IMG/VR virus record: IMGVR_UViG_3300045988_171260
Strand: one strand, 5' to 3'
DNA length: 29,802 bases
Source of the DNA: a virus
Shown: piece by piece, positions 3,034 to 18,183 of the stretch
Layout: every line of letters starts with the position of its first letter
Position numbering within the stretch: position 1 is the first letter of the stretch
Position numbers and translations under genes: made by a program
Notes under the pieces: model-generated
What the model was told of the DNA's origin: nothing
Seen by the model: only the letters and a program-made list of their open reading frames with translations
Database searches by the model: none

Positions 3034-3202
3034 ATATTATATACCTCTTCATATTTTATTTTATTTCATTTCAATAGAGAATTACAGTATTAATTCTTAG
3101 TTAATTGTTATTAACTATATAACTTTTTTCTTTTAATATATATATATTATATTATAATTTTATAAAAAAATCAATGAGAAATTATCGGCAAGTAGTTAAA
3201 TA

Positions 3203-3231
3203 TTGAAAAAGTATAAAAAATATGTTATAAT
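3203..3231 (+). promoter_or_regulatory. Sigma-A-type promoter (TTGAAA-17-TGtTATAAT, extended -10)
   Basis: ttgaaa at 3203-3208, 17-nt spacer, tataat at 3226-3231 preceded by TGt. The ORF-track TTG start at 3203 is actually the -35 hexamer. Confidence 0.55.
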
Positions 3232-3265
3232 ATTTAATATAAACAAGAGAAAAGAGGACACGGGA

Positions 3266-3442
3266 TTGACAAGAGAAGAATTAAGTGCGGAATTGGGTAT
3301 AAGTGAGAATAGAATATTACGTCACTGGCGGGAAGTGTGTAATAGCTATGAGCGGATTGGGATTAAGTTGATTAAAAGAGGGAAGGGAAAAAACGCGGAG
3401 TATGGTATTTTAAAAAAAGACGAGACTATAGCAAGATTTTAG
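3266..3442 (+). CDS. Small HTH DNA-binding protein (~58 aa, TTG start)
   Basis: In-frame TTG at 3266 with AAGAGGA RBS 7 nt upstream and downstream of the promoter. Product LTREELSAELGISENRILRHWREV... has a helix-turn-helix pattern. No in-frame ATG after the promoter. Confidence 0.5.
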   Translation: MTREELSAELGISENRILRHWREVCNSYERIGIKLIKRGKGKNAEYGILKKDETIARF

Positions 3443-3946
3443 GTGTAGGTGAGGGTATTTATGGTAACGGTTGAAAATACAGATGGGACTATAGATGTGT
3501 ATGGTAATCTTGGTTGCGTAATCATATAAATATAGAGCGAAACAAAAGAGAAAGAATCGGGGAATTATGTAAATATTTTATTTCTGGAAAAATATGTGGC
3601 GGCAAGGAGAAAATTTTAATAAAAGATATTGATAATAACTATACTAGATGTCTTTCATATGAATCGGAATAAGAAGAGGAGTTTGTTGCGGATGAAGCTG
3701 GATATAAAGATCTTTGAAGTAAGAATTGCCGCATATAAAAAATAGAGGATTTTCTTTGGAGAGAATTTTAAGATAAGAGGATATTATGACGAGAAAAGTT
3801 TAACTGTTTTGTTGAAAGACGAAATTAAATGTCGAAATGTACACTTTTTCAACAAAATTGTTAAAAAAATATGTTTATATTAAAAGGACGAAATTTGTTA
3901 AGTTTCTTCCAAAAATTTTAAAGAAAAGTGAAAGGAGTTTAACAAA

Positions 3947-4561
3947 ATGGAAAATTTAACGAATATAATGTATTTATATCTATTGATTCATCAAGGACAT
4001 TTTGAAAAGGTGAATTATAGTAAGATATCTAAAGAGTTAGGTGTAACTAGACAAACACTATCAAAACAATATAATTCATTACTAGATAATGAAATGATAA
4101 TAAAAGATGATTTTGGTTTTATTAAAGTTAAAGAAGTTTTAGAATTTGATGAAGAAGATTTAGAAATTATTAAAAATAAAATAGTAGAATATCCTTCTTC
4201 TTATATTGGATATTTACTATTAAAAAGAAGATTATTATACGAAACAGATGCTTCTATTTGTAGTATACTAAAGATAAGTGAAAAATTTATTAAGAATTAT
4301 CAACAAAAAATTATTTTTGATAAGAATAATGGAGAAGAAGATGTAGTAAACTATATATATGCTATTGTTTTAAATAAAGAAATAAAGTACGTAGGTTCAA
4401 CAGAAGATTTAATAAACAGGATACAAATTCATTGCAATAAAAGAAAGTTTTTAGCAGAGAATAATTTTATTATTTTAGAAAAATGTTCGAGGAAGAATAG
4501 ATTTGATAGAGAATCTTTTTATAGAAAGTTATTTAATCCAGAATGGAATACAATTATTTAG
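3947..4561 (+). CDS. HTH (winged-helix) protein fused to a GIY-YIG nuclease-like domain (204 aa)
   Basis: GAAAGGAG RBS. N-terminal ISKELGVTRQTLSKQ HTH. C-terminal NYIYAIVLNKEIKYVGSTEDLINRIQIH matches the GIY-(10 aa)-YIG and conserved-Arg spacing of GIY-YIG domains. Confidence 0.7.
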   Translation: MENLTNIMYLYLLIHQGHFEKVNYSKISKELGVTRQTLSKQYNSLLDNEMIIKDDFGFIKVKEVLEFDEEDLEIIKNKIVEYPSSYIGYLLLKRRLLYETDASICSILKISEKFIKNYQQKIIFDKNNGEEDVVNYIYAIVLNKEIKYVGSTEDLINRIQIHCNKRKFLAENNFIILEKCSRKNRFDRESFYRKLFNPEWNTII

Positions 4562-4572
4562 AGGAAGGAAAA

Positions 4573-4932
4573 ATGGAAACTAGAGAAAATCAAAAGGTGG
4601 TTACAACTATGAAAGCTTTACATGACAGTAATAATTTATATTCTCCAGTTAATATTGAAGCAGCAAGTAAAGCAATGTCTTTGTTAAAACCTAATACTTT
4701 TAAAATTTGGTTTTATTTAGGAAAAAACCAAGATCAATATACTTTTGCATTATCTAAAATAGATGTTATGAAATTTTGTAATATATCGCGGTCTACTTAT
4801 TTATCTTCTATAAAGGAATTGATTGATACACATTATCTAGTTCCAGATAAAGATGGCTCTAATCATTATAATTTTTATGAATTTCCTCAAGAAGTAGAAG
4901 ATGATTTGATTATAACAATAAATAAAGGATAA
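4573..4932 (+). CDS. Hypothetical DNA-binding (winged-helix-like) protein, possibly replication-associated. Track start 4543.
   Basis: In-frame ATG at 4573 (METREN...) with GAGGAAGGA RBS. Segment KIWFYLGKNQDQYTFALSKIDVMKFCNISRSTYLSSIKEL resembles an initiator or replisome-organiser wHTH. Functional call is inference. Confidence 0.55.
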   Translation: METRENQKVVTTMKALHDSNNLYSPVNIEAASKAMSLLKPNTFKIWFYLGKNQDQYTFALSKIDVMKFCNISRSTYLSSIKELIDTHYLVPDKDGSNHYNFYEFPQEVEDDLIITINKG

Positions 4933-4942
4933 AATAAAGATA

Positions 4943-4982
4943 GGTATAATTTTAATACCCTTAAGGGTATTAAAATTATACC
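4943..4982. repeat. 40-bp perfect palindrome (ggtataattttaataccctt|aagggtattaaaattatacc). Candidate bidirectional terminator or cruciform.
   Basis: Read directly from the sequence. Lies 11 nt after the stop of 4573..4932, at the point where plus and minus transcription units converge. Confidence 0.8.
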
Positions 4983-4984
4983 TC

Positions 4985-5204
4985 AGTGGTATTAAAATTA
5001 TACCAGAAATAATACATATATTATATTATAAAAGAAGTAATTTCATTACTTCGTATTCAAGCACTTCGTGCTTTCATACTCGTAATGAAATTACTTCTTA
5101 GCCGCCGATAATTTTGTAAAATGTCGAAAAAGTGTAACACAATATAATATAATATAATAGTGGTATTAAAATTATACCAGAAATAATACATATATTATAT
5201 TATA
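4985..5204. repeat. ~46-bp direct repeat, two copies at ~4985-5030 and ~5159-5204. Each contains the hairpin tggtat-taaaat-tatacca followed by an (ATATT)n-like AT-repeat tail.
   Basis: agtggtattaaaattataccagaaataatacatatattatattata occurs twice. The second copy runs into atattatattatattatataataataat. Confidence 0.75.
5032..5099. repeat. 68-bp near-perfect palindrome with 18-bp perfect outer arms (aagaagtaatttcattac ... gtaatgaaattacttctt) and an inner agcacttcgtgct hairpin
   Basis: Read directly from the sequence. Outer arms are exact reverse complements. The centre contains a 5-bp stem with a TTC loop. Confidence 0.75.
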
Positions 5205-5227
5205 TTATATTATATAATAATAATATA

Positions 5228-5262
5228 GGTAATGTATCATACCTTCGGTATGATACATTACC
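5228..5262. repeat. Perfect 16-bp stem hairpin with a TTC(G) loop (ggtaatgtatcatacc-ttc-ggtatgatacattacc)
   Basis: Exact inverted repeat read from the sequence. The loop resembles a UUCG-type stable loop. Confidence 0.8.
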
Positions 5263-5340
5263 TTAGTGTAAATTAAAATGAAGAGTTTTATACGGGGTGG
5301 GGTATTTAGTAGTTGAATCCGCTCTGTTTTAGAGGGACTC

Positions 5341-6108
5341 TTGTTTAATTTTAAAATGTCAAGGAACGTTTTAAAAAATGATTTGAAAATTTTAAGGTTT
5401 AAGTAAATTAGGAAAGTTTTTCGGAAGGCATGAGAAAAAGTAAGAAAAGAAGTATGGTATATTTAGAGAATGGCAAAGAATATTACTGAATAATAACAAA
5501 GAGTTAGAGAGTTTTGTTAAAAACGAGTTATGGTTTTTTGGTTAGAAAAGTGTGGAAGAGGGTATTTAAATTATAAGAGAAGTATGGGAGTGCGGAGTTG
5601 AGTTTAATTAAAGTGCTTCCGCATTTAAAAAGCAAGGTTAAATAAAAATTGCGGGTTACAGAATTACTTAAATAAAATTATTAAAGTTTTGCGTGAGGAG
5701 TTTGATTTTGGAGAGAATTAAGGGTAGCTTTAATAAAATATAAAGATTGGATTAAAGGTGCGTAAGATTAAGATAATAAAATATTTTAGAATTAGAGGGA
5801 ATTGAGGATAGGTTAGCAAAAATAATAAGACTGAGCAAAGAGAATTTAATGTTTGGGTTAAGAGAAAGTATAAGTTAGATTAAGAGAGAAGAAGGTTGAA
5901 GTATATAAAACAATAAGCGGAAGTGAGGATTTTGAGATTGGGTTAAGAGAGGAGTGAGATTAGAGTGAGAGAGCGTAGAATTGGAGTGTAGAGAGGATGA
6001 GAGTGAGGCGTGAGTGGAGAAAGGATAGAGTGAGGCTGAAAAAATGCGAGAAAAAGGTGAAAAAAATTGTGAAAAAAATTGTGAGAGTGAAGTGCTCAGC
6101 CTCACTCT
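5341..6108 (+). other. ORF-free cytosine-depleted, G/A-rich tract (~4% C on the plus strand by hand count; about 43% G and <2% C over 5940-6000). It ends in a long-range inverted repeat with tandem 12-mers.
   Basis: Hand count of C per 60-nt line over 5341-6090 gives ~29 C in 750 nt. No ORF survives in any frame except low-complexity artefacts. Degenerate repeats include gggttaagaga x2 and gagtgag(g) several times. gtgaaaaaaatt occurs twice in tandem (6057-6080). Confidence 0.7.
6024..6108 (-). terminator. Candidate terminator for 6135..6530: 13-bp arms agagtgaggctga/tcagcctcactct around a T-run-rich loop
   Basis: On the minus-strand transcript the stem gagtga/tcactc is followed by acaatttttttcacaattttttt. 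Non-canonical long loop, hence modest confidence. Confidence 0.35.
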
Positions 6109-6134
6109 CCCTATCCTACCTACCTCAGAGCTCT

Positions 6135-6530
6135 TTATACAAGCCCAGAGAGGATTTTTCTAATAATTTCATCATCTGATAAAGCTTTTTCATTCTCCCG
6201 TTTTACATCTCTTTTTAAATCTGTATCTACTCTTTTAATTCCAAATGATCTTCCCCTTGGAATATCACCCATTTTACCAAAAGCTTCAATAGTCTTTTCC
6301 ATCTTAGTAAACTCTGTCATAAGATTTTTTCTATCCTCAGTAGACTCTTTTTTATCAATAGCTCCAAGAGCAATTCCATACGCTACAAACGCGTCAACCA
6401 ATTTGTTTCTCGCATCTACAATCGCCTTTGTGCGGGTTTCCTTAGTCTGCTCCGCCTCGATTTCAGCTCTTACCGCCTTAAGAATTTCATCTGTTGTTTT
6501 GCCTTCTGCGATCATTCTTTTAATATCCAT
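6135..6530 (-). CDS. Hypothetical protein (131 aa), charged and helical
   Basis: ORF track. GGAGAA RBS. Own promoter at ~6578-6606. No recognisable motif. Confidence 0.65.
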   Translation of the reverse strand: MDIKRMIAEGKTTDEILKAVRAEIEAEQTKETRTKAIVDARNKLVDAFVAYGIALGAIDKKESTEDRKNLMTEFTKMEKTIEAFGKMGDIPRGRSFGIKRVDTDLKRDVKRENEKALSDDEIIRKILSGLV

Positions 6531-6853: not shown

Positions 6854-6913
6854 CGGATCCGAGTCCTTTGAACTCGGACCGCTGATTATATCACAGCCGC
6901 CGCATTTTGTCAA
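6854..6913 (-). promoter_or_regulatory. Consensus promoter (TTGACA-17-TATAAT at 6885-6913) whose transcript begins with a GC-rich hairpin (6854-6881)
   Basis: Reverse complement reads ttgaca aaatgcggcggctgtga tataat cagc, then stem cggtccgagt/actcggatccg. Same promoter-plus-5'-hairpin architecture as at 10667-10695, 10850-10878 and 14239-14267. Confidence 0.55.
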
Positions 6914-7195
6914 TAGGCAAATTATATAAATTTTTCATTATTTTTTTAGTAATATTGCACAAAAAGTCATTTTTACCAAAAATTTCATTAAAAATAGGAT
7001 TTTTTTTGGTAAAAATGACTAAAATAAATAAAAATGTACAAAAAAATAGCCAAAAACCGCGTAATTTTTGGCTATTTTATATAGAATATAGAATTTTATT
7101 GAATTTTTATAAGAAATTTTAGTTATTTTGTATAGAATAGTCAGAAATGTAAATTTTCTGACTATTCTACGTAATTTTTAGTTACCTTGAACTGC

Positions 7196-7591
7196 TTACT
7201 CCTCTACAGCTTCCTCTTCCTCTTTTGCAAGAGAGAAATAAGGAACTCTTTTTTCAACTGTTCTAACTACCTCTCCAGATTCGATAAGCTGTTTAAGAAG
7301 AGCCGATAATTTCTGAGAAGAAAGTTTACTCATTTCAGAGTTTTCCTTAATCATGGTTGAAACTGTAACAGGTTTATCAAATAACTCCAAAGCTACAAGA
7401 ATAAGTTTTTTGACTTCCTCATTTTCTTTCTGGTTTTTGGTTTTTTTACCGCTGGAAGATTTTTTATTCAACAGCTCGATTTCATGTCTGAGAAAGTTAA
7501 GTGCTTCTTCTTTTGGTTCAAAGCTACTTTCTTCCAGAAAAGCACTGATAGTTTCAAACCAATCTTTTTTTGTCATTTTGTCTTTCATCAT
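7196..7591 (-). CDS. Hypothetical protein (~131 aa) with C-terminal winged-helix-like segment. Track start 7597.
   Basis: ORF track. Conserved leader gaggtaATGaatATG. C-terminal VTVSTMIKENSEMSKLSSQKLSALLKQLIESGEVVRTV resembles a wHTH. 13-bp perfect inverted repeat gaatagtcagaaa/tttctgactattc downstream at ~7147-7179. Confidence 0.65.
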   Translation of the reverse strand: MMKDKMTKKDWFETISAFLEESSFEPKEEALNFLRHEIELLNKKSSSGKKTKNQKENEEVKKLILVALELFDKPVTVSTMIKENSEMSKLSSQKLSALLKQLIESGEVVRTVEKRVPYFSLAKEEEEAVEE

Positions 7592-7624
7592 ATTCATTAC
7601 CTCTTTCTTTCTTTTGATATATTT

Positions 7625-7653
7625 ATTATAGCATACTTTTTTGTTTTTGTCAA
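7625..7653 (-). promoter_or_regulatory. Consensus promoter TTGACA-17-TATAAT for 7196..7591, part of a duplicated ~70-bp promoter-leader module
   Basis: Reverse complement reads ttgaca aaaacaaaaaagtatgc tataat aaatatatcaaaagaaagaaagaggtaatg. An identical module recurs at 7880-7947. Confidence 0.65.
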
Positions 7654-7684
7654 TTACTTTTTTTATTTTTTTCTTTTCTGGTGC

Positions 7685-7873
7685 TTATCTAATGTAAGCA
7701 CCAGCAATAGACTTAACAGAGCCATCAGCATTGAAAAAGATAACATTATTCTGGATAACGTTGATACCTTTATTCTTTGCAAAATTTCTGAACACAAAGT
7801 CTGTATTCCAGAGTTTGATAAAATCAGCTTTTCTCATGCTTGCAAAACCTTTTGTGTAATTCATTGTTCTCAT
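7685..7873 (-). CDS. Hypothetical small protein (~62 aa). Track start 7879 (TTG).
   Basis: ORF track. Preceded by an exact copy of the 7604-7670 promoter-leader module. ATG at 7873 has proper GAGG spacing. Confidence 0.55.
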   Translation of the reverse strand: MRTMNYTKGFASMRKADFIKLWNTDFVFRNFAKNKGINVIQNNVIFFNADGSVKSIAGAYIR

Positions 7874-7906
7874 AGACAATACCTCTTTCTTTCTTTTGAT
7901 ATATTT

Positions 7907-7935
7907 ATTATAGCATACTTTTTTGTTTTTGTCAA
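7907..7935 (-). promoter_or_regulatory. Consensus promoter TTGACA-17-TATAAT, second copy of the duplicated module
   Basis: Same sequence as 7625-7653. Confidence 0.65.
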
Positions 7936-7951
7936 TTACTTTTTTTATTTT

Positions 7952-8155
7952 TTAATTTTTTCCAAGATACTCTTCAAGATGCTCGTTTAAGAAATTTATA
8001 GTTTCATCCAACCCGTGAATCTCACAAAAGTTTTTAAAAGCTTTTTCAAGTTCTTTTGCTCTTGTATCTTTTATAACTTTTACGCAAGTGCCATACTCTT
8101 CTTTTGTAATAACAAAAGGAACGCATCCATCTTCTTTCAACGTAAAACTTCTCAT
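7952..8155 (-). CDS. Hypothetical small protein (67 aa)
   Basis: ORF track. RBS aaagggg. A 10-bp stem hairpin (8175-8203) lies immediately upstream of the RBS. Confidence 0.55.
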   Translation of the reverse strand: MRSFTLKEDGCVPFVITKEEYGTCVKVIKDTRAKELEKAFKNFCEIHGLDETINFLNEHLEEYLGKN

Positions 8156-8174
8156 CTTATAGCCCCTTTCTGTC

Positions 8175-8232
8175 CTTGCTACTGCCTACTCAGCAGTAGC
8201 AAGTTTGTTAAACTGTCTAATTTTTATTTTTT
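8175..8232 (+). terminator. Hairpin cttgctactg/cagtagcaag followed by a T-run on the plus strand. Intercistronic hairpin on the minus transcript; possible antisense-transcription terminator.
   Basis: 10-bp stem read from the sequence. Followed by tttgttaaactgtctaatttttatttttt. Confidence 0.35.
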
Positions 8233-8598
8233 CTTCGGCGGTCTATGTTTGATTAACGAAATTGAGTATTCCGCACCGCCAATTTTAAAAGTAATTTCTT
8301 TTTGCGGATTTGCAATGGTCACATTTTCAAAGTTTATTTCCTCAACTTCTTTCAAGTGATTTGCTAAAATCTCAATGATTTTAACTTTTTCCGCATCTAA
8401 CTTCACCTCACGCTTTTTCGTGCTTTTTTTCTCTGGCGTACTCTGGACATAATTCTTAATGCCTTTAGCCTTAATCTCCATTTCTGCCATTTCAAGAGCT
8501 TCCTCTTTTGTTACGGGTTCTCCATCCGCTTCAAATTCTTTCATAAGCTTAATAGCAAGCTTTTCGATTGCATCTGCGGTCACTGCTGTTTTAGCCAT
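8224..8598 (-). CDS. Hypothetical protein (124 aa), Lys/Glu-rich
   Basis: ORF track. Promoter-leader module with TTGACT-17-TATAAT at ~8618-8690, duplicated at 9413-9478. Confidence 0.6.
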   Translation of the reverse strand: MAKTAVTADAIEKLAIKLMKEFEADGEPVTKEEALEMAEMEIKAKGIKNYVQSTPEKKSTKKREVKLDAEKVKIIEILANHLKEVEEINFENVTIANPQKEITFKIGGAEYSISLIKHRPPKKK

Positions 8599-8671
8599 GT
8601 TACATCACATCCTTTTTAAAATTTACTATTAACTTGTTACAATGGTATTATATCGCACCTTAGTTTAAAAG

Positions 8672-9382
8672 TCAAGCATTTTCGTGTAATTCTTTTCTTT
8701 TTTTCTGCGGTAGTCTCCAACATGACGGCTTAATACTTCTATCCATTTTTTTATGCTGGTCAAAACATTTTTTCATAATTTCAATTTCAATTTTTACATC
8801 TTCTAAACCTGTATGAGATTCTACAAAATCAATATTCTTTTTAATATATTTATAGCATACCTCAGCGTTAGTTAAAAGATTGCCTTTTTCAGACTCAAAT
8901 CCGTTTTTCTCAGCAAATTTGATATAGGTGTTTGTACTTAAAATCATCTGGCAAGCCATATTCCAAATACAAAAATATTCTGTGCCATAAGGGAAAAACC
9001 AGCGAATAAAACTTTTGCTATGGTATCTAATAGCATTGTTTAATGCTTTTCTATCAAAATTCATATTGTAAGCACCAACTTTTTTCACATTATATTCTTT
9101 CATGTCTGCAAACATCTGTTTTCTAATATTGAAGATGCTTTTCATGGTTCTTTTTCCGCTTTTTAAATCATCCCAATATTTTGGGATTTTTTTAGCGTAG
9201 TAGGCACTATTCATAGCTTCTTTCAAGTCAATAAATGTCTCAGCGACTACAAAGCTTCTTTCGGTGACAATGTTACCGTGTCTATCTGCAATAGCATAAC
9301 CAATATCATAAGGGATTGGCTCATTTACACTATTCGCAGTTTCTGTATCCAATACCATGAAAAACTCTTTTCTTCTACTCAT
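8672..9382 (-). CDS. DEDDh (DnaQ-like) 3'-5' exonuclease (~236 aa). Track start 9397 is a TTG.
   Basis: Exo I VLDTETA. Exo II YNMNFDRKAL. Exo III HTGLEDVKIE. ATG at 9382 with GAGGAAA RBS 6 nt upstream. Confidence 0.8.
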   Translation of the reverse strand: MSRRKEFFMVLDTETANSVNEPIPYDIGYAIADRHGNIVTERSFVVAETFIDLKEAMNSAYYAKKIPKYWDDLKSGKRTMKSIFNIRKQMFADMKEYNVKKVGAYNMNFDRKALNNAIRYHSKSFIRWFFPYGTEYFCIWNMACQMILSTNTYIKFAEKNGFESEKGNLLTNAEVCYKYIKKNIDFVESHTGLEDVKIEIEIMKKCFDQHKKMDRSIKPSCWRLPQKKRKELHENA

Positions 9383-9480
9383 TTTTGATTTCCTCAACTT
9401 TCATTTATTTTTTTTACTATTAACTTGTTACAATGGTATTATATCGCACCTTAGCTTAAAAGTCAAGCATTTTCGTTTAT

Positions 9481-9656
9481 TTTTTAAAATCTTTTAACTG
9501 CTGGTTTGTAGACAACTCTTTAATTTTATATTTATGTAATCTGTTGTTTAAACAATAAATGCATGAACCATGGTTTCTGCACTGCATTGATATTGCTTTT
9601 GCTTTGCGGTATTCTTTTCTATGCTCTTTACCACTTTTAATTGCTTTGTCCATCAT
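9481..9656 (-). CDS. Small Cys-containing protein (~58 aa), below the 60-aa ORF-track threshold
   Basis: Hand translation MMDKAIKSGKEHRKEYRKAKAISMQCRNHGSCIYCLNNRLHKYKIKELSTNQQLKDFKK. AGGTGG RBS 6 nt upstream. 18 nt after the stop of 9674..10147, in the same operon. Confidence 0.45.
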
Positions 9657-9673
9657 GTTTAACCACCTACTTT

Positions 9674-10147
9674 CTATAAGAAATTTTTTAATACTTCCAT
9701 GATATTGTTTACATCAAAACTATTTTTGCCCCACTCTTTTCTATTGCGTTCCTCGTCATCAAAAAGCCATCCCTTACAATCAACGACAGTACTTTTTGGT
9801 GTACCATAGTTTACAATTTTGATTTCATCCCATTCAATACTAGGCAAGTGTTTTTCAAGCCATGCAAGTTTTACACTTGTTACCGCCGTATTATAAGAAG
9901 CTGACCCGCTTTTACTTAACCAGCTTACAATACCGATTCTATAGCCATTAGCTTGTAACTTGTGAAGCACTCTTGCGAAAGCTGAAAAATTGAAAAGCGG
10001 TTTTGCTACTTTGTATGGTGTAGTATCTTCTTTTTCCAAATATGCTAACCAGTTTTCCACGCCGTAGAAATTAGCAAGTGTGCCGTCCATGTCAAAATAA
10101 ATAGTTCCCTTTGTGTTCATCATTTCTTTAATTGTATTATTCATCAT
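9674..10147 (-). CDS. HAD-superfamily phosphatase, possibly 5'(3')-deoxyribonucleotidase-like. Track start 10159 is a TTG.
   Basis: N-terminal DxDGT motif IYFDMDGTLANF. Size ~157 aa. ATG ATG at 10147/10144 with GGGAAGG RBS. Product specificity is inference. Confidence 0.65.
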   Translation of the reverse strand: MMNNTIKEMMNTKGTIYFDMDGTLANFYGVENWLAYLEKEDTTPYKVAKPLFNFSAFARVLHKLQANGYRIGIVSWLSKSGSASYNTAVTSVKLAWLEKHLPSIEWDEIKIVNYGTPKSTVVDCKGWLFDDEERNRKEWGKNSFDVNNIMEVLKNFL

Positions 10148-10591
10148 AATATCTACCAATCCTTCCCTTTTTGATTATCGCAAGTGCTTTGCGATTGACC
10201 GACCAATGATTATGTGAACCTTGCTTTGTTTCTGTTTTTTAAGTTTAATGTCCTTCGACAAGTATATATTACTACATCTTAGCGAAAAAGTCAAATTTAT
10301 TTTTTATTGTGCAAAGTGATGAAAATTTTACATAAAAATCATAGTATTTTTGTTAAAATGTACAAATGTAGAAAAATAATGCGGATTTAGGCAGATTTTT
10401 GTGCATTTTGCTATCTTAAATATCACATATTGTGTTTCTGCGTGTCAAAAAAGGTATGATTTTTTATTAAAATTTCGTCACTTTGCACAAGGTGTAGAAA
10501 ATCTTAGCATTATTTTATTAAATTTTGTACATTTTGTACACCATGTCAAAAAATGGGATTTTTTTAATTTATTTTTTGTGCAAATTGCCTA

Positions 10592-10621
10592 TTGACAAAA
10601 AGGTGCTAGATGTGGTATAAT
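10592..10621 (+). promoter_or_regulatory. Consensus promoter TTGACA-18-TGgTATAAT. Transcript starts with the GC hairpin 10627-10648. No downstream plus-strand gene.
   Basis: ttgaca aaaaggtgctagatgtgg tataat. Preceded by a tttgtgcaaattgcc tattgaca upstream element. Confidence 0.6.
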
Positions 10622-10666
10622 AAAATTTCGGGGTGCCCCGACCCCGAACGGAATTCGTCTACCTCC

Positions 10667-10695
10667 ATTATAACACAGCCGAGCCACCTTGTCAA
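10667..10695 (-). promoter_or_regulatory. Consensus promoter TTGACA-17-TGtTATAAT, convergent with the 10592 promoter. Its transcript runs through the same hairpin and then a U-run.
   Basis: Reverse complement reads ttgaca aggtggctcggctgtgt tataat. The predicted ~45-nt RNA ends in stem ttcgggg/ccccgaa plus AUUUUAUUAUA. Confidence 0.55.
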
Positions 10696-10705
10696 GAGTT
10701 TTTTC

Positions 10706-10740
<35 letters not shown>

Positions 10741-10783
10741 AATTTTAGGATAAAAATTTTAAAAAATTTGTGCATTTTTTCTC

Positions 10784-10812
10784 TTGACAAAATGTCTCAA
10801 CTATGTTATAAT
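10784..10812 (+). promoter_or_regulatory. Consensus promoter TTGACA-17-TATAAT. Transcript starts with GC hairpin 10821-10847.
   Basis: ttgaca aaatgtctcaactatgt tataat. Upstream tttgtgcattttttctc element. Confidence 0.6.
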
Positions 10813-10849
10813 GGAAGGCTCGGCTCGCATGGGCTGCTCGCGAGCCGCT

Positions 10850-10878
10850 ATTATAACACATTTTCCGCGACTTGTCAA
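10850..10878 (-). promoter_or_regulatory. Consensus promoter TTGACA-17-TGtTATAAT, convergent with the 10784 promoter across hairpin cggctcgc/gcgagccg
   Basis: Reverse complement reads ttgaca agtcgcggaaaatgtgt tataat agcggctcgcgagcagcccatgcgagccg. Confidence 0.55.
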
Positions 10879-10896
10879 CCCCTTTTAAAAAATTTT

Positions 10897-10972
10897 TTTA
10901 TTTTCGTCATTTTGCATAAAAATAAAATTCAGCATTTTGCACAAATTTTATTTTCGTCATTTTGCATAAAAA
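10897..10972. repeat. 26-bp direct repeat tttattttcgtcattttgcataaaaa, two copies with period 50
   Basis: Copies at 10897-10922 and 10947-10972, read from the sequence. Confidence 0.75.
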
Positions 10973-10998
10973 AACAAAAGCCTAAATTATATAGGCTT
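10966..10998 (-). terminator. Rho-independent terminator ending the 11018-13771 minus-strand gene block
   Basis: Stem aagccta/taggctt (10978-10998) followed on the minus strand by uuguuuuuuua. Confidence 0.6.
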
Positions 10999-11017
10999 TA
11001 TCATTACTCTTATTAAG

Positions 11018-11224
11018 TTATTTAGTATTACATTTACATTTTGCTTCTGTAATAATTTCTGTCTGATTAATTTCTGTATTGCTATTGTTATTAAAAAAAT
11101 GGTCTGAGCCTTTTGCTAAAAAAACTATTATAGTTGCTAGAATCATTCCGATTATAAGAAAACCAATTAGACCATTCAAATCTCTTCTAAATTCTTCATC
11201 TGTTGGGGCTTTTTCTTCTCTCAT
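11018..11224 (-). CDS. Small membrane protein (68 aa, one TM: LIGFLIIGMILATIIVFLA)
   Basis: ORF track. Hydrophobic core. ATG start. Confidence 0.55.
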   Translation of the reverse strand: MREEKAPTDEEFRRDLNGLIGFLIIGMILATIIVFLAKGSDHFFNNNSNTEINQTEIITEAKCKCNTK

Positions 11225-11270
11225 TTATTTTTTCCTTTTTTTAGAGTTGTGAGTTGTGAATTTCATGGAC

Positions 11271-11450
11271 TTAATTATTATTAAGTCCATGAAACTTTTT
11301 ATTTTCTCGTTTCATTATTGTTTCATAAGCAATCTCTACTATTTCTTTTGAAATATTTTGATTTTCTGCTATTTTACAGAACATAATCACTGTATCATTT
11401 TCAAACCCTTTTACTTTAATTACATTATCCATCATCTCTGTTCTTGTCAT
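11271..11450 (-). CDS. Hypothetical small protein (~59 aa). Track start 11471.
   Basis: Promoter TTGACA-17-TATAAT at 11483-11511 places the TSS ~5 nt from the 11471 ATG. Internal ATG at 11450 has AAAGAGAGGAAAG RBS. Confidence 0.5.
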   Translation of the reverse strand: MTRTEMMDNVIKVKGFENDTVIMFCKIAENQNISKEIVEIAYETIMKRENKKFHGLNNN

Positions 11451-11530
11451 TATTGCTTTCCTCTCTTTCATTTGATAATGTTATTATACACTACTTTTGA
11501 AAATCTGTCAAGACTTTTTTATTTTTTTTC

Positions 11531-11767
11531 TTAACTATTTTTTTTACTTTCAACCATGTTTTTTGTAAATTCATTACTAAACTTTTCGCATGTTTCTTCT
11601 GATAAGTCCGCTCTTAATGCAATAAACTCCATAACCGTACTGACACCATACATAAATGATTCTTTACCATTTTTTGCATCATATTTCCCAGAGAAGAATG
11701 ATGGCGATTTTTTTTTCATATCCTCAAATACTATTTTATAAGCCTCTTCTAATTTTTTATTCTCCAT
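11531..11767 (-). CDS. Hypothetical small protein (~78 aa). Track start 11779 is GTG.
   Basis: ORF track. Promoter TTGACA-17-TATAAT at 11800-11828, whose -35 is embedded in the 8-bp-arm palindrome ggtcttga/tcaagacc (11811-11832). Confidence 0.55.
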   Translation of the reverse strand: MENKKLEEAYKIVFEDMKKKSPSFFSGKYDAKNGKESFMYGVSTVMEFIALRADLSEETCEKFSNEFTKNMVESKKNS

Positions 11768-11843
11768 TATATATATCACTCCTTTTCTCTTATGGCTTAA
11801 TTATACTATAGGTCTTGACTTTTGTCAAGACCTATTTTATTTT

Positions 11844-12104
11844 TTATTTTGGAAGAATAACTTCAGCCTCAACAGGCACTACTTTCTCAGACGCCATAAA
11901 AGCTCTCATGTATCCCGTAGCAAGATTAACCGCAATGAATCTACCTTTTTGTCTCTCCAAGAAAAAACCGCTGTTCCTATCAATAATCATGTACAATCCA
12001 ATTTCATCAATACCACCTCTTTGAGTAATACTAAAAAAAGTTTTTCCTATTGTTAAGTCATTAATGCAAATTTCTGTTGCTTTTTTATCATAATTAATTT
12101 TCAT
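11844..12104 (-). CDS. Hypothetical protein (86 aa)
   Basis: ORF track. GAGAGG RBS. ATG at 12104. Confidence 0.6.
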   Translation of the reverse strand: MKINYDKKATEICINDLTIGKTFFSITQRGGIDEIGLYMIIDRNSGFFLERQKGRFIAVNLATGYMRAFMASEKVVPVEAEVILPK

Positions 12105-12204
12105 TTTAATTACCTCTCTTTCTTATTTAATTTCTTTAAAGATACTTTCACTTGTGGCATTACATAACTTATTATTTACGTTATACTTATCATAAAGCCA
12201 CTTT

Positions 12205-12306
12205 TTACAATCCCATTTTAGCGGACAGTGATAACAAAGTTGTAGTAAAAGCTGTGGTTTCCATCGGAATTGCAAGAAATATCTTTTTAAGTTTTTTAGT
12301 TATCAT
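12205..12306 (-). CDS. Tiny hydrophobic peptide (33 aa), sub-threshold ORF
   Basis: Hand translation MITKKLKKIFLAIPMETTAFTTTLLSLSAKMGL. GAAAGGAG RBS 9 nt upstream. Promoter TTGACA-17-TATTAT at 12340-12368. Confidence 0.35.
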   Translation of the reverse strand: MITKKLKKIFLAIPMETTAFTTTLLSLSAKMGL

Positions 12307-12385
12307 ATTATTTTTTTCTCCTTTCTTTTAACTATCTTTATAATACCATATTAAAATTATTTTGTCAATCCCCTTTTATAAAAAA

Positions 12386-12425
12386 TTATAAAAAAGGAAG
12401 ATTTTTTATCTTCCTTTTACTTTTG
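12386..12425. terminator. Bidirectional factor-independent terminator (stem aaggaagat/atcttcctt, A-run before, T-run after)
   Basis: Read from the sequence at 12394-12416 with flanking homopolymer runs. Confidence 0.55.
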
Positions 12426-12447
12426 TTTTATTCTTGTTTTTTTATTT

Positions 12448-12594
12448 TTATCTTAATAATCTTAATAAATAGTTATTTTCATGCTCTTTCAAAAAAGCGT
12501 TAATTTCTTCTATTGTTTCAGCGTAAATCTCGCCTGTCTCAGTGTCTACAAGCATCAATTTTTTACTTCCTAAAAATAATCCTAAATCTAACAT
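12448..12594 (-). CDS. Small protein (48 aa), sub-threshold ORF
   Basis: Hand translation MLDLGLFLGSKKLMLVDTETGEIYAETIEEINAFLKEHENNYLLRLLR. GGAGGG RBS. Start codon lies 14 nt after the stop of the upstream ORF. Confidence 0.4.
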   Translation of the reverse strand: MLDLGLFLGSKKLMLVDTETGEIYAETIEEINAFLKEHENNYLLRLLR

Positions 12595-12608
12595 ATTTAA
12601 GCCCTCCA

Positions 12609-12728
12609 TTAAGAAATTTTTACCAGATAACCGTTTGTATTTTTTTCTACTGAAAAAATGTATTGATTATCTTTTAAGTATTTTTTTACAGTTTCAAATG
12701 CTTTTCGAGTTGTCAGTAACATTGTCAT
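12609..12728 (-). CDS. Small protein (39 aa), sub-threshold ORF
   Basis: Hand translation MTMLLTTRKAFETVKKYLKDNQYIFSVEKNTNGYLVKIS. AGAGAGG RBS. Promoter TTGACA-17-TATCAT at 12761-12789. Confidence 0.4.
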   Translation of the reverse strand: MTMLLTTRKAFETVKKYLKDNQYIFSVEKNTNGYLVKIS

Positions 12729-13223
12729 ATCCCTTTACCTCTCTTTCATTTGATAATACTATGATACTATATTTCTTTGCTTTTGTCAAGCATTTTAGGA
12801 AAATTTTCTAAAGATTTTTTTATGCGGATTTCCGCTGGAAAAACCTGAACTTAAGGAGATTATAGGCGAACCGACTCCAGAACTATCAAGTTCGGGAGTC
12901 CCTTTTTTATTTAAGGAATGATTCTAAAGCCTTGTAGCATAAATCAGCGTTTTCTTTATCTTTTATGCTAGTACCTTTAGAAAAGTCATTCATAGCGGCT
13001 GTCAGTAGTTCTGGTACTGAAATAAATTCAAATCCAACTGTAAAGCCGCCAATTCATTAAGATTGACTTTTTTCATCGGTTCTTTCTTATCTCCTTTTTA
13101 AATATTTTATTTTCTTTACATTATTATTATATCAAATTTTTTAATAAAAATCAAAAAAGATACTTTATCTAAACAAGCAAAGAAAAGGGCTGAACTTATT
13201 CCGCCCTTTTCCCACACTTTCCG

Positions 13224-13490
13224 CTATCCTATTATCTCTGCATCTGTAATAATATCATCTGTCACATTATTAGTCCCTAAAGAATCCATGTGCAATTTAA
13301 CTTTATCTCTTGCTTTAAAGCCGTCCCCGTAGAAACTCCAGACATGTCCGTAGCTATCCATAACAACCACCTCATTATTAAAAGAGCTAATCACCTTAGC
13401 TTCTCTTGTGTACTTAGTAAAGCTGTCAAAACCGCAAATACTAATTAAAGTTGCACTTACTACTAATCCTAAAATTACCTTTTTCATCAT
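13224..13490 (-). CDS. Secreted small protein with N-terminal signal peptide (~88 aa). Track start 13502 is TTG.
   Basis: MMKKVILGLVVSATLISICG hydrophobic N-terminus. GGAG RBS inside the end of the upstream gene. Hairpin terminator ~13165-13211 downstream. Confidence 0.6.
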   Translation of the reverse strand: MMKKVILGLVVSATLISICGFDSFTKYTREAKVISSFNNEVVVMDSYGHVWSFYGDGFKARDKVKLHMDSLGTNNVTDDIITDAEIIG

Positions 13491-13492
13491 GT

Positions 13493-13771
13493 TTAACTCC
13501 AACCTCTTTCTTTCTTAATCTTTTCGTATCTTTCTTTTGCTTCTTTTTCAATCTTCTTTTTGTCATACATTCTAATTTTCATTCTAGTATATCCGTCTCT
13601 TTTTAAACACCAACGTTCTGTTTTACGTTGTACTACTATTTTATCAATAGCTCTTTGCTGTACCTCTTGCTTATGAGTGTTGTAATATTTGATACTCTCA
13701 ATTTCTAATAAAGTACTTATTGGTCTGTACTTATTGGTTACACTAAACAAAGTGCATTGAATTGTTATCAT
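13493..13771 (-). CDS. Hypothetical basic protein (92 aa)
   Basis: ORF track. GAGAGG RBS. Own consensus promoter at 13800-13828. Confidence 0.6.
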   Translation of the reverse strand: MITIQCTLFSVTNKYRPISTLLEIESIKYYNTHKQEVQQRAIDKIVVQRKTERWCLKRDGYTRMKIRMYDKKKIEKEAKERYEKIKKERGWS

Positions 13772-13799
13772 CTTCTTATCACCTCTCTTTTCAAGTATT

Positions 13800-13828
13800 A
13801 TTATACTACCTTATTATACCATTGTCAA
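13800..13828 (-). promoter_or_regulatory. Consensus promoter TTGACA-17-TATAAT for 13493..13771
   Basis: Reverse complement reads ttgaca atggtataataaggtag tataat. Confidence 0.6.
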
Positions 13829-14238
13829 GCGTTTATTTATAGTATTTTTATTCGTCTTAATGCATATTTATTTATGTATATTTATTCACATTGCTAGTTA
13901 GCTTTACATATTTTATATTTATATCCTTTTATAAATTTTATAAATTAAATTATAAAATAAAATATAATATATCAGTTATTGCATTGTTTTACTTAATATT
14001 TATTTAAGCATATCTTTCTTATTATACTATTATGTTATTCTATTATAACTATTATAAGACAAGAGTCTTACGTTGAATACACTATTATTATTATTGTAAC
14101 ACTTCTATAAAAGTAATTACATAATATAAAATATTATTATACTTATACTTTGTATGTATTGTTATAGTATAATATTATTATACTGTTATTATTATTATTA
14201 TTATTATTATCTTTCCTTTATCTTAAGCTTAATCTCTC

Positions 14239-14267
14239 ATTATAACACCTTTAGCTCATTCTGTCAA
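14239..14267 (-). promoter_or_regulatory. Consensus promoter TTGACA-17-TGtTATAAT firing into the gene-free, extremely AT-rich tract 13830-14230
   Basis: Reverse complement reads ttgaca gaatgagctaaaggtgt tataat. Its -35 is the first copy of the TGTCAATAGACA 12-mer. Confidence 0.5.
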
Positions 14268-15813: not shown

Positions 15814-16971
15814 ATGACACCAATAATAATAGAAGATGAAGCTTTTGAGGAGAATATTTTAGAAGAAGAAAAAACAACAGAAAAACAAATCAAAGAAGAA
15901 AATATACAAACTACTATTAAATTAGATTATTCTTTAGAGACTCCTGAAGAGCGGAATGAATTAGTTAAAAAAATTATAAATAATACTCCTTCTGAGCAAT
16001 TAACACCTAGATATTTAGAAATATTGTCAGATTACATTATTTTTGCTATGGATAAACAAGAGCGGAAACAAAAGCAAATATTAACTGATAATCACATGGT
16101 CACAGTTAACAAAAGAGAAACTTCTTTTGAAGGATTAGTTGGTCGCTTAGAGAATGGCGAAGATGGCATTTATAATATGATTGCTAATGATAAGAATATT
16201 ATCTTTACACCTAAATTTCAAATAACTCAACAAGATATTGCGGAAATCCCCGAGTTAAAACAACTTGTAGACGCGATTGCGGAAGTTGAAAAAGCTGAGA
16301 AAAAAGCAGTTGGTAAAAAGAAATTTTTATTAAAAAAGCAACTTATTGCTATGAGACAAGATCAATATGTAATTAGAAGTGCATATAAGCCGCCAATTTA
16401 TTGTATGAACGCAATTAAAAGTTTTAGCAAAATTGATTTTGATGAAAATGTTTCTATTAGCGGAGATGATGAAATTGAAGATAATAGCTTAGTTTCTTTT
16501 TTTAATCCTAAGCACGTATCTGCGTTATTATGTAACTATTCCCGCCTAAAAGAAGATGCATGGGGAAAATTCTATAGTGATTCATACTTTTTAATGGAAG
16601 ATTTAGATACATTAATAGAAAAGACTTTAAGAGACAGCTATCCAATGTATTATGACCTCTTGATTTATAAAATAGATGGAAAACAAAATCTTGAAATTCA
16701 AAGCCTATTGAATCAAAAGCATAATGTAAAACATTCAGTGGAATATATATCATCTTTGTGGCGGAATAAGATACCTAAGCTATTGTCAGAGCAAGCTCAG
16801 GAAGACTACTTAATTTGGTATTATACGACTCAGAAGAAGGGAAAATGGAAAAAATGTTCCCGCTGTGGGGAAATCAAATTAGCTCATAATAAATTTTTTT
16901 CAAAGAATAAGACAAGCAAAGATCATTTTTACAGTATATGTAAATGTTGTCGAAATAAGAAAAATAAGTAA
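15814..16971 (+). CDS. Hypothetical protein (385 aa), acidic N-terminus, C-terminal zinc ribbon
   Basis: ORF track. CSRCGE...CKCC at the C-terminus. First gene of the structural operon. Confidence 0.7.
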   Translation: MTPIIIEDEAFEENILEEEKTTEKQIKEENIQTTIKLDYSLETPEERNELVKKIINNTPSEQLTPRYLEILSDYIIFAMDKQERKQKQILTDNHMVTVNKRETSFEGLVGRLENGEDGIYNMIANDKNIIFTPKFQITQQDIAEIPELKQLVDAIAEVEKAEKKAVGKKKFLLKKQLIAMRQDQYVIRSAYKPPIYCMNAIKSFSKIDFDENVSISGDDEIEDNSLVSFFNPKHVSALLCNYSRLKEDAWGKFYSDSYFLMEDLDTLIEKTLRDSYPMYYDLLIYKIDGKQNLEIQSLLNQKHNVKHSVEYISSLWRNKIPKLLSEQAQEDYLIWYYTTQKKGKWKKCSRCGEIKLAHNKFFSKNKTSKDHFYSICKCCRNKKNK

Positions 16972-16983
16972 AGGAGGCTAATA

Positions 16984-18183
16984 ATGAATTATACTTGCAA
17001 CAAATGCGGAAAATCAATGGATGAAATAAATTTTTATACATATAAAAATGGTAAAAAAACAGAATTATGTAAAAAATGTTTAACTATGCATATAAATAAT
17101 TTTGAACCTAATACTTTCCTATGGGCATTAGAAAAGATGGATGTTCCATATGTTCCAGAAGAATGGAATATTTTAAGGGATAAAGCCTATGCAAAAGATC
17201 CTTATAAAATGAATGGGATGTCAGTATTTGGAAAATATCTTTCTAAAATGCGGCTAAAACAGTGGAAAAATTATAGTTGGGCAGATACAGAAAAGATTGC
17301 TCAAGAAAAAGAAAAAAAGACTCAAGAGGATCTCGAACAACAGAAAAAATTTGAAGAGAGTATGAAGCAACAGCTTGAAAAAGGGGAAATTTCTGAAGCT
17401 GAATACAAAACAATGGTTTCTACCCCTACTCAGAACGCGGAATTGGCGGTAAAAGCTCCTAAGAACGAGATTGGAACTGACAATTTTTATGATGAAAATA
17501 ATTTTATAAGCGAGGATGAATTAATTGATCCCGCCGCGGAATTAACTCAAGAAGATAAGATTTACTTAGCTATGAAATGGGGACGTTTATACAAACCAAA
17601 TGAGTGGGTTGAATTAGAGAAAAAATATGAAGAGATGACTAGTTCTTTTGATATTCAAGATTCAGATACTACAGGAACTTTAATTCTTATTTGTAAAACC
17701 TATTTAAAGATGAATCAGGCGATCGATTGCGGTGACATGGATGGATACCAGAAATTATCCAGAGTATACGATTCATTGCGTAAATCCGCAAAATTTACAG
17801 CCGCACAAAATAAAGAAGTAAAAAGTGATTTTGTAGACTGTATTGGAGAGATGGTTGCCTATTGTGAAAAAAATGGCGGTCAGATTCCAAGAATGAAGAT
17901 AGAGGCTCCAAATGATATAGTAGATAAGGTTATCATGGATTTAAAAGAGTATACGAGATCATTGATTTATGATGATAAATCCCTTGCTCAACAGATAGAA
18001 AATTATATTAAGCAGAGAGAAAATGCGGATGCGATGAAGAAAGATAGAGAAGAAGCTAAAGAAAAAGGCTATAATCAAATAGAATTAAAAGATAGAGATT
18101 ATCAAACTTATTTTGATAATATTGCAAAAGAAAAAGAAAATGATGAAAAAATTTATATAGGAGAGGATGAAGATTTTATATGA
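16984..18183 (+). CDS. Hypothetical protein (399 aa) with N-terminal zinc ribbon; possible DNA-recognition/terminase small-subunit role by position only
   Basis: CNKCGK...CKKC at the N-terminus. Stop overlaps the TerL start (ATGA). No recognisable TerS motif, so the TerS call is positional inference. Confidence 0.7.
   Translation: MNYTCNKCGKSMDEINFYTYKNGKKTELCKKCLTMHINNFEPNTFLWALEKMDVPYVPEEWNILRDKAYAKDPYKMNGMSVFGKYLSKMRLKQWKNYSWADTEKIAQEKEKKTQEDLEQQKKFEESMKQQLEKGEISEAEYKTMVSTPTQNAELAVKAPKNEIGTDNFYDENNFISEDELIDPAAELTQEDKIYLAMKWGRLYKPNEWVELEKKYEEMTSSFDIQDSDTTGTLILICKTYLKMNQAIDCGDMDGYQKLSRVYDSLRKSAKFTAAQNKEVKSDFVDCIGEMVAYCEKNGGQIPRMKIEAPNDIVDKVIMDLKEYTRSLIYDDKSLAQQIENYIKQRENADAMKKDREEAKEKGYNQIELKDRDYQTYFDNIAKEKENDEKIYIGEDEDFI

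Follow-up and report, generated by a model that had tools for sequence, protein, structure and literature searches.

The window analysed here is the whole of a 29,802-nucleotide stretch of viral DNA (IMG/VR record IMGVR_UViG_3300045988_171260) from an uncultured phage of about 134 kb and 29% GC. About 330 bp of it, directly downstream of the gene of a 119-residue winged helix-turn-helix (wHTH) protein, hold a cluster of dyad repeats, AT-rich boxes and perfect hairpins. It is proposed, with a probability of about 0.55, that this cluster is an iteron-type replication origin module and that the protein is its cognate origin-binding protein, a function deduced from sequence comparisons. The arrangement of an initiator-type wHTH gene, phased dyads, a meltable AT-rich box and hairpins is like that of known iteron origins, which favours an origin module. 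An iteron origin with a cognate binding protein is a known kind of system. What appears to be new is that the binding domain stands alone, that the sites lie directly 3′ of its gene, and that a box common to many lineages is followed by palindromes with mini-hairpin apexes. The layout appears to be widespread in phages of gut Clostridia and to be hitherto undescribed.

The four elements of a preliminary description of this DNA, namely a palindrome, a direct repeat and two hairpins, were all found within 1 bp of where it had placed them and are far beyond chance. On single-strand folding, z-scores for the three hairpins range from −7.5 to −9.5, and none of 200 shuffled sequences folded as well. 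The palindrome is perfect, as described, and extends over 42 bp (4942–4983, 21-nt arms, no spacer) instead of 40 bp (4943–4982). The direct repeat (4985–5030 and 5159–5204) is exact over 46 bp and is contained in a 60-nt repeat of 90% identity with a period of 174 bp. It had been missed that palindrome and direct repeat are both made of one 17-bp dyad unit, GGTAT-N7-ATACC. Four exact copies of this unit, starting at 4943, 4966, 4988 and 5162, are present and none is found elsewhere in the 29.8 kb; 0.35 matches would be expected by chance even with three mismatches allowed. The 42-bp palindrome consists of two units in opposite orientation, and it is not kept as a palindrome in relatives. The spacings of the units are 23, 22 and 174 bp, 22–23 bp corresponding to two helical turns, so that the four units provide the three or more repeated sites, phased at about whole helical turns, that are typical of an iteron origin. 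The cluster begins 10 bp past the stop codon of the 119-residue protein. All the units lie 3′ of the wHTH gene, and there is none near the promoter, at 3203, of the plus-strand gene island to which this gene belongs. Ten near-identical strains (L099–L108) were aligned and the cluster is conserved across them; in L101 and L107, units 3 and 4 carry an identical A>G change in their centre. An exact scan of IMG/VR with the 17-mer returned mostly single chance matches and one true relative (L013, which is L354).

The box, which starts with AGAAATAWTACA..., occurs in the window at 5005 and 5179 only, and is therefore not a promoter motif reused in the window. It is itself composed of two to four copies of a unit of about 10 nt, WATAWTACA. 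The least stable duplex of the whole 29.8 kb is located at 5187–5226 when calculated over 40 bp and at 5147–5226 over 80 bp. Together, the box and this duplex form the AT-rich element abutting the repeats that is expected of an iteron origin. In the strain assemblies the length varies at 5179–5226, and three of them have scaffold gaps there; the module would explain the breaks and collapses that the assemblies of this phage show here. L108 has a third copy of unit and box. Scans of IMG/VR and metagenomes with 16 nt of the box were unspecific; among the matches listed, one further strain was left after filtering.

The hairpin at 5227–5263 has the perfect stem that had been described, with a TTC triloop and not a UUCG tetraloop at its apex. 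Its loop (5244–5246) is TTC in most strains and GAA in L101, L102 and L107, an inversion of the palindrome centre that amounts to a flip-flop polymorphism. The stem of the hairpin at 5032–5099 shows a compensatory C>T/G>A pair of changes in L101 and L107, and in five more divergent loci (L111, L113, L354, L110 and L355) its apical core is kept and its basal stem swapped for other perfect stems. In every lineage the first hairpins after the box have strictly Watson–Crick stems, of a sequence that differs by lineage. A global tally of G-U pairs, intended to distinguish RNA from DNA structures, was uninformative as it included irrelevant predicted pairs, and the main stems were inspected instead. 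The argument that terminators do not need stems of 16–20 bp fails in this phage, where perfect hairpins with 15–19-bp arms are found at other intergenic positions (589, 1309, 6965, 7133 and 11261); stem length alone is thus not special.

At the hairpin apexes, C-TTC-G on the gene strand reads SCGAAGS on the opposite strand. In 6 kb of DNA downstream of the box there are 13 copies of this heptamer, a 17-fold enrichment over the background of 0.125 per kb. All 13 are on one strand (13:0), and they are distributed over 8 of 20 lineages. GCGAAGC and CCGAAGG are extraordinarily stable DNA mini-hairpins, documented at primase-dependent phage origins and at ssiA of the RSF1010 oriV (PMC13037366). A stable hairpin with a GNA-type apex on one strand, beside a candidate origin, is expected of single-strand initiation (ssi) hairpins, and it is found here. 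Two complex hairpins in tandem are present in L113 (1030–1210). The corresponding part of L111 (1420–1500) resembles a deletion fusion, in which the 5′ arm of the first hairpin is joined to the core and 3′ arm of the second; the deletion would be a recombination between conserved apical cores.

The predicted structure of the 119-residue protein (AF2/AlphaFold) is a winged helix, with a predicted local distance difference test score (pLDDT) of 71.6. A profile search of 1.8 billion representatives gave 780 relatives at E < 1e-10. Many are of 105–135 residues, and many others of 200–340 residues with the wHTH domain at the N-terminus. Among 80 sampled members, 53 match phrog_270 ("replication initiation protein"), 30 phrog_186 ("DnaD-like helicase loader"), 28 phrog_428 and 24 phrog_678 ("replication initiation O-like"), against one match to a transcriptional regulator family. 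The initiator PHROG families are matched directly by L356 and L361, which are distant homologs that carry the module. The protein is therefore a candidate for a stand-alone N-terminal domain of the phage replisome-organiser family. The Pfam family HTH_36 matches six of six close homologs below cutoff, the best value for the window protein being 0.005. Profile searches of PDB sequences gave nothing significant, and NCBIfam has no family for the protein. The Foldseek list mixes regulators (CodY, MarR, ArsR), initiators (RctB domain 1, the DnaD-like domain of Geobacillus DnaB, pSK41 Rep) and TubR. Searches for related loci with the wHTH protein alone, the neighbouring GIY-YIG protein alone, or the long form P0032 returned nothing. 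No match among deposited phages was obtained by megablast with the locus, or by tblastn with the 119-residue protein and one long family member, and no paper in the literature collection searched contains these motifs.

The comparison of strains and lineages supports a link between the protein and the units. Relative to L101 and L107, divergence is 0.6% in the gene of the 119-residue protein, 3.7% in the cluster, 5–9% in the flanking genes and about 9% in the rest of the gap, which makes this gene the most conserved locally, and gene and cluster together the best-conserved section of the neighbourhood. Loci whose homologs are 79% (L109), 73% (L354), 65% (L111–L113) and 59% (L110) identical carry three to six copies of GGTrT-N7-rTACC directly after the stop codon, the last copy being fused to ACCAGAAATAWTACA... 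The orientation of the central 7 bp varies by lineage; the unit thus behaves as a symmetric dimer site. Loci with homologs 33–62% identical, from IMG/VR, a 5.2-kb plasmid and metagenome-assembled genomes of gut Clostridia, have the same layout with different units (Table 1), and their last unit always runs into the common box, (T)AGAGAAATAWTACA... Neighbouring units are mostly 20–23 bp apart in every lineage, with some wider gaps of 36–67 bp. In all, about 20 independent lineages present the gene, three to six dyad repeats, the AT-rich box and perfect hairpins. As each distinct recognition helix is paired with a distinct unit, the units co-vary with the protein and the box is invariant. The box is missing from a subgroup with open reading frames (ORFs) of 141–177 residues in Oscillospiraceae and from a few other loci. 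The module is inverted in L372.

The preliminary description had suggested that the cluster might be an origin or hold the binding sites of a neighbouring initiator; a cruciform, a terminus-like element and sites for structure-specific nucleases or resolvases were its other options, with the upstream GIY-YIG protein (3947–4561) as a possible partner. The first two suggestions are supported by the arrays that follow wHTH homologs in about 20 lineages, by the co-variation with the recognition helix and by the initiator profiles. The GIY-YIG protein is not a conserved partner, relatives having an HNH gene, another helix-turn-helix (HTH) gene or nothing in its position. No support was obtained for a cruciform or a terminus; the palindrome of 42 bp is not itself conserved.

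Table 1. Features of the cluster and its surroundings, repeat units of other lineages, and endonuclease neighbours. Positions are those of the window unless another locus is named.
Feature	Position	Strand	Description
Repeat unit 1	4943–4959		GGTATAATTTTAATACC; centre inverted relative to units 2–4; forms the palindrome 4942–4983 with unit 2
Repeat unit 2	4966–4982		GGTATTAAAATTATACC; 23 bp from unit 1
Repeat unit 3	4988–5004		Spaced 22 bp from unit 2; runs directly into box copy 1
Repeat unit 4	5162–5178		Within the 174-bp duplicated segment
AT-rich box, copy 1	5005–5030	+	AGAAATAATACATATATTATATTATA; candidate unwinding or priming element
Box copy 2 and (ATATT)n AT-rich tract	5179–5226	+	Length differs between strains
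Complex perfect hairpin	5032–5099		18-bp basal stem, inner 4-bp and 6-bp stems, apical core CTTCGTATTCAAGCAC-TTC-GTGCTTTCATACTCG; z = −9.5
Simple perfect hairpin	5227–5263		17-bp arms, 3-nt TTC loop; minus-strand apex CCGAAGG; z = −9.2
Promoter-like block	5127–5150	+	GAAAAAGTGTAACACAATATAATA; TCGAAA-18-TATAAT, 10/12
wHTH gene	4573–4932	+	119 residues; candidate origin-binding protein; start used by gene callers in 10 strains
HTH-GIY-YIG endonuclease gene	3947–4561	+	Directly upstream of the wHTH gene; Pfam GIY-YIG 1.9e-6
Promoter of the plus-strand island	3203–3231	+	TTGAAA-17-TATAAT with TG
C-depleted, G-rich non-coding tract	5265–6083	+	819 nt; C 4.4%, G 27%; associated with the module
Intrinsic terminator	6083–6109	−	Ends the minus-strand early operon; right edge of the non-coding gap
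Large terminase gene	18180–19922		13 kb from the cluster, behind a block of opposite-strand genes
Repeat unit in L355			TATTCAAAATGAATA
Repeat unit in L356			GTGGTAAAAAAACTTTACCAC; two pairs, first units 182 bp apart
Repeat unit in L361			TTTCTCAAATTGCGAAAAA
Repeat unit in L362/363			TTCTGAA..GAAAA
Repeat unit in pRGF00006			GTGTA-N11-TACAC
Repeat units in L365–L389			Further distinct sequences
Endonuclease neighbours of the wHTH gene	Window 3947–4561; L109 3005–3604; L366 1116–1490; L384 1993–2964; L386 2139–3002; L364 890–1501 (minus); L355 about 1880 onward		

Among known systems, ori-lambda has four 18-bp iterons and a 38-bp AT-rich segment and is bound by O (PMC3349717). The likeness lies in several initiator repeats of 17–19 bp with an internal dyad, bound by the N-terminal winged helix of the initiator, in an AT-rich unwinding segment directly beside the last repeat, and in the "replication initiation O-like" PHROGs that are matched by members of the present family. 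In lambdoid phages the iteron sequence and the specificity of O vary, the AT-rich part is kept, and an inverted repeat comes after it. In contrast, the lambda ori lies within the O gene, whereas the sites here start 10 bp past the stop codon; O has about 300 residues and a C-terminal domain that binds P-DnaB, whereas the present protein has 119 residues and no such domain. Moreover, many phages have in common the conserved repeat of about 10 nt (WATAWTACA) that makes up the present box, and the hosts are Firmicutes.

The oriL of SPP1 has AB boxes and a DNA-unwinding element that are bound by the organiser G38P, and a second site, oriR, is present (PMC5737612). SPP1 also has Firmicutes hosts, boxes for an organiser that is not an AAA+ protein, an adjacent unwinding element and two binding regions per genome. 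A likeness to DnaD-like organisers is seen in the 30 of 80 family members that match the DnaD-like helicase loader and in the Geobacillus DnaB domain of the Foldseek list. Unlike the present sites, oriL is inside gene 38. As an organiser G38P is full-length, and loader and helicase genes come after it, none of which is adjacent here. G38P has no direct sequence match to the 119-residue protein, for which no PDB or Pfam match passes the threshold. The oriV of RSF1010 has iterons, an AT-rich segment and stable hairpins in the same order. Its hairpins are single-strand initiation signals, and the ssiA apex, CCGAAGG (PMC13037366), is identical to the minus-strand apex of 5227–5263. RSF1010 differs in that it supplies RepC as initiator, RepA as helicase and RepB′ as primase itself, none of which was identified here, and in having two ssi sites on opposite strands, whereas the motif here is on one strand.

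A mechanism can be proposed along these lines. Dimers of the 119-residue protein would bind the units cooperatively and distort the DNA, and the adjoining box and AT tract, as the least stable duplex of the window, would then melt. As an identical box accompanies different units, it would be read by a factor shared by hosts or phages; helicase loaders, primases and polymerases are examples. When the DNA has become single-stranded, the hairpins of the bottom strand, with their C-GAA-G apexes, might act as signals for priming or primosome assembly, for rightward synthesis; the hairpins could also insulate the origin from converging transcription. Transcription from the promoter at 3203–3231 would pass through the wHTH gene and on into the repeats, and such read-through might activate the origin, in parallel with lambda ori. 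With unit and box duplicated at a distance of 174 bp, there may be a second initiator-binding site, comparable to the oriL/oriR pair of SPP1.

Several observations weigh against an origin. The protein lacks the C-terminal part by which lambda O, G38P and DnaD-like organisers recruit helicase or loader. In an iteron origin the initiator carries or recruits the helicase-loading function; here the wHTH domain stands alone, and it is the longer relatives that have C-terminal extensions. No helicase, primase or loader gene adjoins the module in the window; a partner may be encoded elsewhere. The window protein has no PHROG match of its own and reaches no curated threshold, so that its link to initiators is transitive, through the profile. 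Foldseek gave generic winged helices, all non-significant at E > 0.08. The mini-hairpin motif is missing in 12 of 20 lineages, and the flipped loop of L101, L102 and L107 argues against a strict strand requirement for the hairpin at 5227–5263. An inflection of the GC skew had been suggested as a check, which proved uninformative: the cumulative extreme, at 6.0–6.5 kb, coincides with the switch in gene orientation that confounds it, and its polarity is that of a terminus, the wrong one for an origin. Plasmid pRGF00006, the single plasmid seen to carry the module, was rejected as proof of replicon function, as it has its own Rep and iterons.

The main rival explanation is an operator-promoter switch, in which the 119-residue protein would be a transcription factor with the 17-bp dyads as operators, and the box a promoter for a conserved polymerase, driving a non-coding RNA, regulatory or used as a replication primer, from the hairpins into the C-poor tract beyond them. 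This is possible, and considered rather unlikely. Tandem 17-bp dyads beside a conserved AT-rich element do fit lambdoid operators and promoters, which is a further point against an origin. The OR and OL operators are tandem 17-bp dyads 22–24 bp apart that abut a conserved element and whose specificity co-varies with the protein, and the variable sites at 22–23 bp next to an invariant element found here follow the same logic as an immunity region. However, the protein is assigned to a winged-helix family with initiator profiles and not to the Cro/CI HTH family, the sites are overlapped by no consensus promoter, and they are 3′ of the gene and not between divergent regulatory genes. Operators are expected 5′ of the genes that they regulate, yet none of the sites is at the protein's own promoter. 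The fold also matches MarR, CodY and ArsR regulators, but the family matches initiator over regulator profiles by 53 to 1. As to a promoter, positions 9–14 of the box form a −10-like TAyAAT (TATAAT in L354; TACAAT in L110, L111 and L361), and a weak −35-like hexamer lies inside the last unit before the box. The best promoter-like site of the cluster is the conserved block at 5127–5150, which occurs once in the window and is near-exactly common to L110, a locus with a 59% identical protein. Yet the best sites of the cluster score 9–10 out of 12, the box site at most 9, against 12 out of 12 for the early promoters of this phage, and the box is not reused elsewhere in the window. A plus-strand gene does lie downstream of the module in L110, L355 and L370, whereas in the window and in L111 only converging genes come after it, which leaves no downstream gene there for the module to regulate. 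In L374, a canonical plus-strand terminator follows the box by about 35 nt. Finally, the supposed RNA belongs to no Rfam family, and the C-poor tract is about 9% divergent between strains.

A partition site, with a wHTH protein like TubR or ParR, or a cos or pac packaging site, with a wHTH protein like the small terminase (as lambda Nu1 at cosB), the box as cleavage site and the endonuclease as helper, is improbable. TubR was matched weakly (sequence E = 0.22; Foldseek probability 0.85), but no gene of a TubZ/ParA-type NTPase is present in the window or in the 20-kb strain loci, the nearby ATPase being a classical AAA protein encoded on the other strand. In the cosB/cosN logic, variable binding sites stand beside an invariant site, and so they do here. 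Also in favour of packaging, HNH or GIY-YIG genes flank the wHTH gene in at least seven lineages, and resolvases near the module in three lineages would suit partition or packaging. Against this, the large terminase gene is far away, the endonuclease family differs by lineage and is often absent, as expected of homing endonucleases, and the protein family matches initiator and not terminase or partition profiles. Complete-length and near-complete contigs break at unrelated positions, and the cluster is therefore not a fixed genome end. Still less probable is that the hairpins are ordinary terminators or insulators ending the plus-strand island, with repeats produced by local duplication and no specific protein partner. 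Long perfect hairpins are usual in the intergenic regions of this phage, and their strictly Watson–Crick stems evolve by compensatory change. Terminator-like tails follow 4983–4942 and 5263–5227 on the minus strand, but no hairpin has a T-run after it on the plus strand, and the minus-strand operon is already ended by the terminator at 6083–6109. Terminators would also leave unexplained the four exact units, their 22–23-bp phasing, the conservation in about 20 lineages, the co-variation with the protein and the invariant box.

A bolder version of the origin reading, to which little likelihood is given, is that the module is a portable and self-contained origin cassette that moves among phages, prophages and plasmid-like elements of gut Clostridia, with an initiator reduced to its binding domain, lineage-specific dyads and a universal WATAWTACA box. 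Initiation would then occur without the classical contact between organiser and loader, either through a nick or break by the GIY-YIG or HNH enzyme, or through an RNA primer across the box, as an R-loop stabilised by the C-poor tract. The endonucleases would in that case be functional partners, or homing elements that spread the cassette.

To our knowledge, replication origins have almost never been mapped in large phages of Firmicutes or, more generally, in uncultured phages of the gut. The reading as an origin module provides a concrete, testable candidate of one 119-residue protein and about 330 bp of DNA, and a signature with which phages and prophages of Clostridia can be searched: a short wHTH gene, dyads at 20–23 bp, then AGAAATAWTACA. 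If it were confirmed, a stand-alone origin-binding domain would suffice as specificity factor, the invariant box would be exposed as a loading site shared by hosts or phages, and vectors for gut Clostridia, in which genetic manipulation is difficult, could be built from orthogonal initiator-iteron pairs.

Some copies of the module are carried by integrative or plasmid-like elements, as indicated by the recombinases, the integrase and the replication initiation gene in their vicinity. Small serine recombinases are found near it in three lineages (L366, 2540–3208; L379, 767–1372; L364, 2049–2663), a tyrosine integrase 1.2 kb upstream in L380 (811–1824), and a 370-residue "replication initiation protein" (phrog_4402) about 700 nt downstream in L374 (2341–3453). 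The plasmid pRGF00006 (L364, HG796773.1) is a 5.2-kb circular mosaic that carries the module together with a conventional Rep with iterons. Its 381-residue Rep, its resolvase and a 129-residue ORF contain no TAG, and its HNH gene, wHTH homolog and a 118-residue ORF require three to seven in-frame TAG codons to be read as Gln, at Gln positions conserved in their families. Either this record is a chimeric assembly, or it arose by recombination between a plasmid of standard code and a TAG-recoded phage.

The window belongs to an SPbeta-like large siphophage of gut Firmicutes. Its large terminase shares 44% identity with the enzymes of Enterococcus phages H1/EF1 and Geobacillus virus E3, and there is also a match to YonF of Brevibacillus phage Sundance, all of them large SPbeta-like siphophages with Firmicutes hosts. 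The plus-strand island comprises its promoter, the HTH-GIY-YIG gene and the gene of the 119-residue protein. It is followed by a 1.2-kb gap (4933–6134) in which no gene was called in any of the ten strains. The cluster had been placed at a convergence point. It does come directly after the last plus-strand gene, and the closest minus-strand gene ends at 6135, about 870 bp to its right, so that it is situated at the 3′ end of the island and not exactly where the genes converge. Searches for tRNAs and against Rfam found no tRNA and nothing at gathering thresholds, and permissive thresholds produced spurious miRNA-like hairpin matches only.

The ORF-poor region from 5 to 15.8 kb was considered for stop-codon reassignment, which was rejected, as the region is packed with small early genes on the minus strand. 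These are driven by perfect TTGACA-17-TATAAT promoters. Twelve such 12/12 promoters were found in the early region, at 6885–14267 on the minus strand and at 10592, 10784 and 15758 on the plus strand, many with an upstream TG, an unusual density of consensus host-type promoters. The first gene of the late plus-strand block (15814–16971) matches a sigma-factor PHROG (4.5e-52), and its C-terminus is weakly similar to endonuclease VII. In L109 and L110, as in the window, the wHTH module is accompanied in synteny by the ATPase encoded at 1365–2477 on the minus strand (phrog_2376, E = 6e-102; nSTAND3/AAA), which has homologs about 50% identical in at least 258 IMG/VR contigs of 50–250 kb. The ATPase was rejected as a replication initiator or loader, being a classical FtsH/p97-like AAA protein. 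In a comparison of L099–L108, the left non-coding gap (3034–3946) is the most variable part of the neighbourhood, with 8–15% substitutions and about 450–480 gap columns, and L101, L105 and L107 have a second SprT-like gene beside the first (locus coordinates 8000–8550, about 3034–3200 of the window).

The HTH-GIY-YIG gene probably encodes a free-standing homing endonuclease that is not core to the module. The N-terminus of its product was tried as a paralog of the wHTH protein and rejected as not significant (hhalign probability 3.5%). At least seven lineages have an endonuclease gene directly next to that of the wHTH protein; it is of the GIY-YIG family in two of them and of the HNH family in five, and other lineages have none. 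These recurrent endonucleases are likeliest to be homing endonucleases exploiting a conserved target, and are possibly paired functionally with the module.

The C-depleted tract to the right of the cluster is the most C-poor stretch of the window and becomes abruptly C-rich at the minus-strand terminator. It matches no Rfam family and no gene was called in it in any strain. Its composition is kept in the closer lineages, with a sequence about 9% divergent between strains. Possible explanations are R-loop-prone DNA, a protein-sponge RNA and plain mutational skew. A C-poor composition is also seen at 3200–3700 of the window and in L110 (6610–7000), L111 (1490–1900) and L113 (1200–1545). In L110 the tract is followed by an odd GC-rich stretch (7000–8400) without convincing genes, in which motifs resembling GGCCATATG are repeated.

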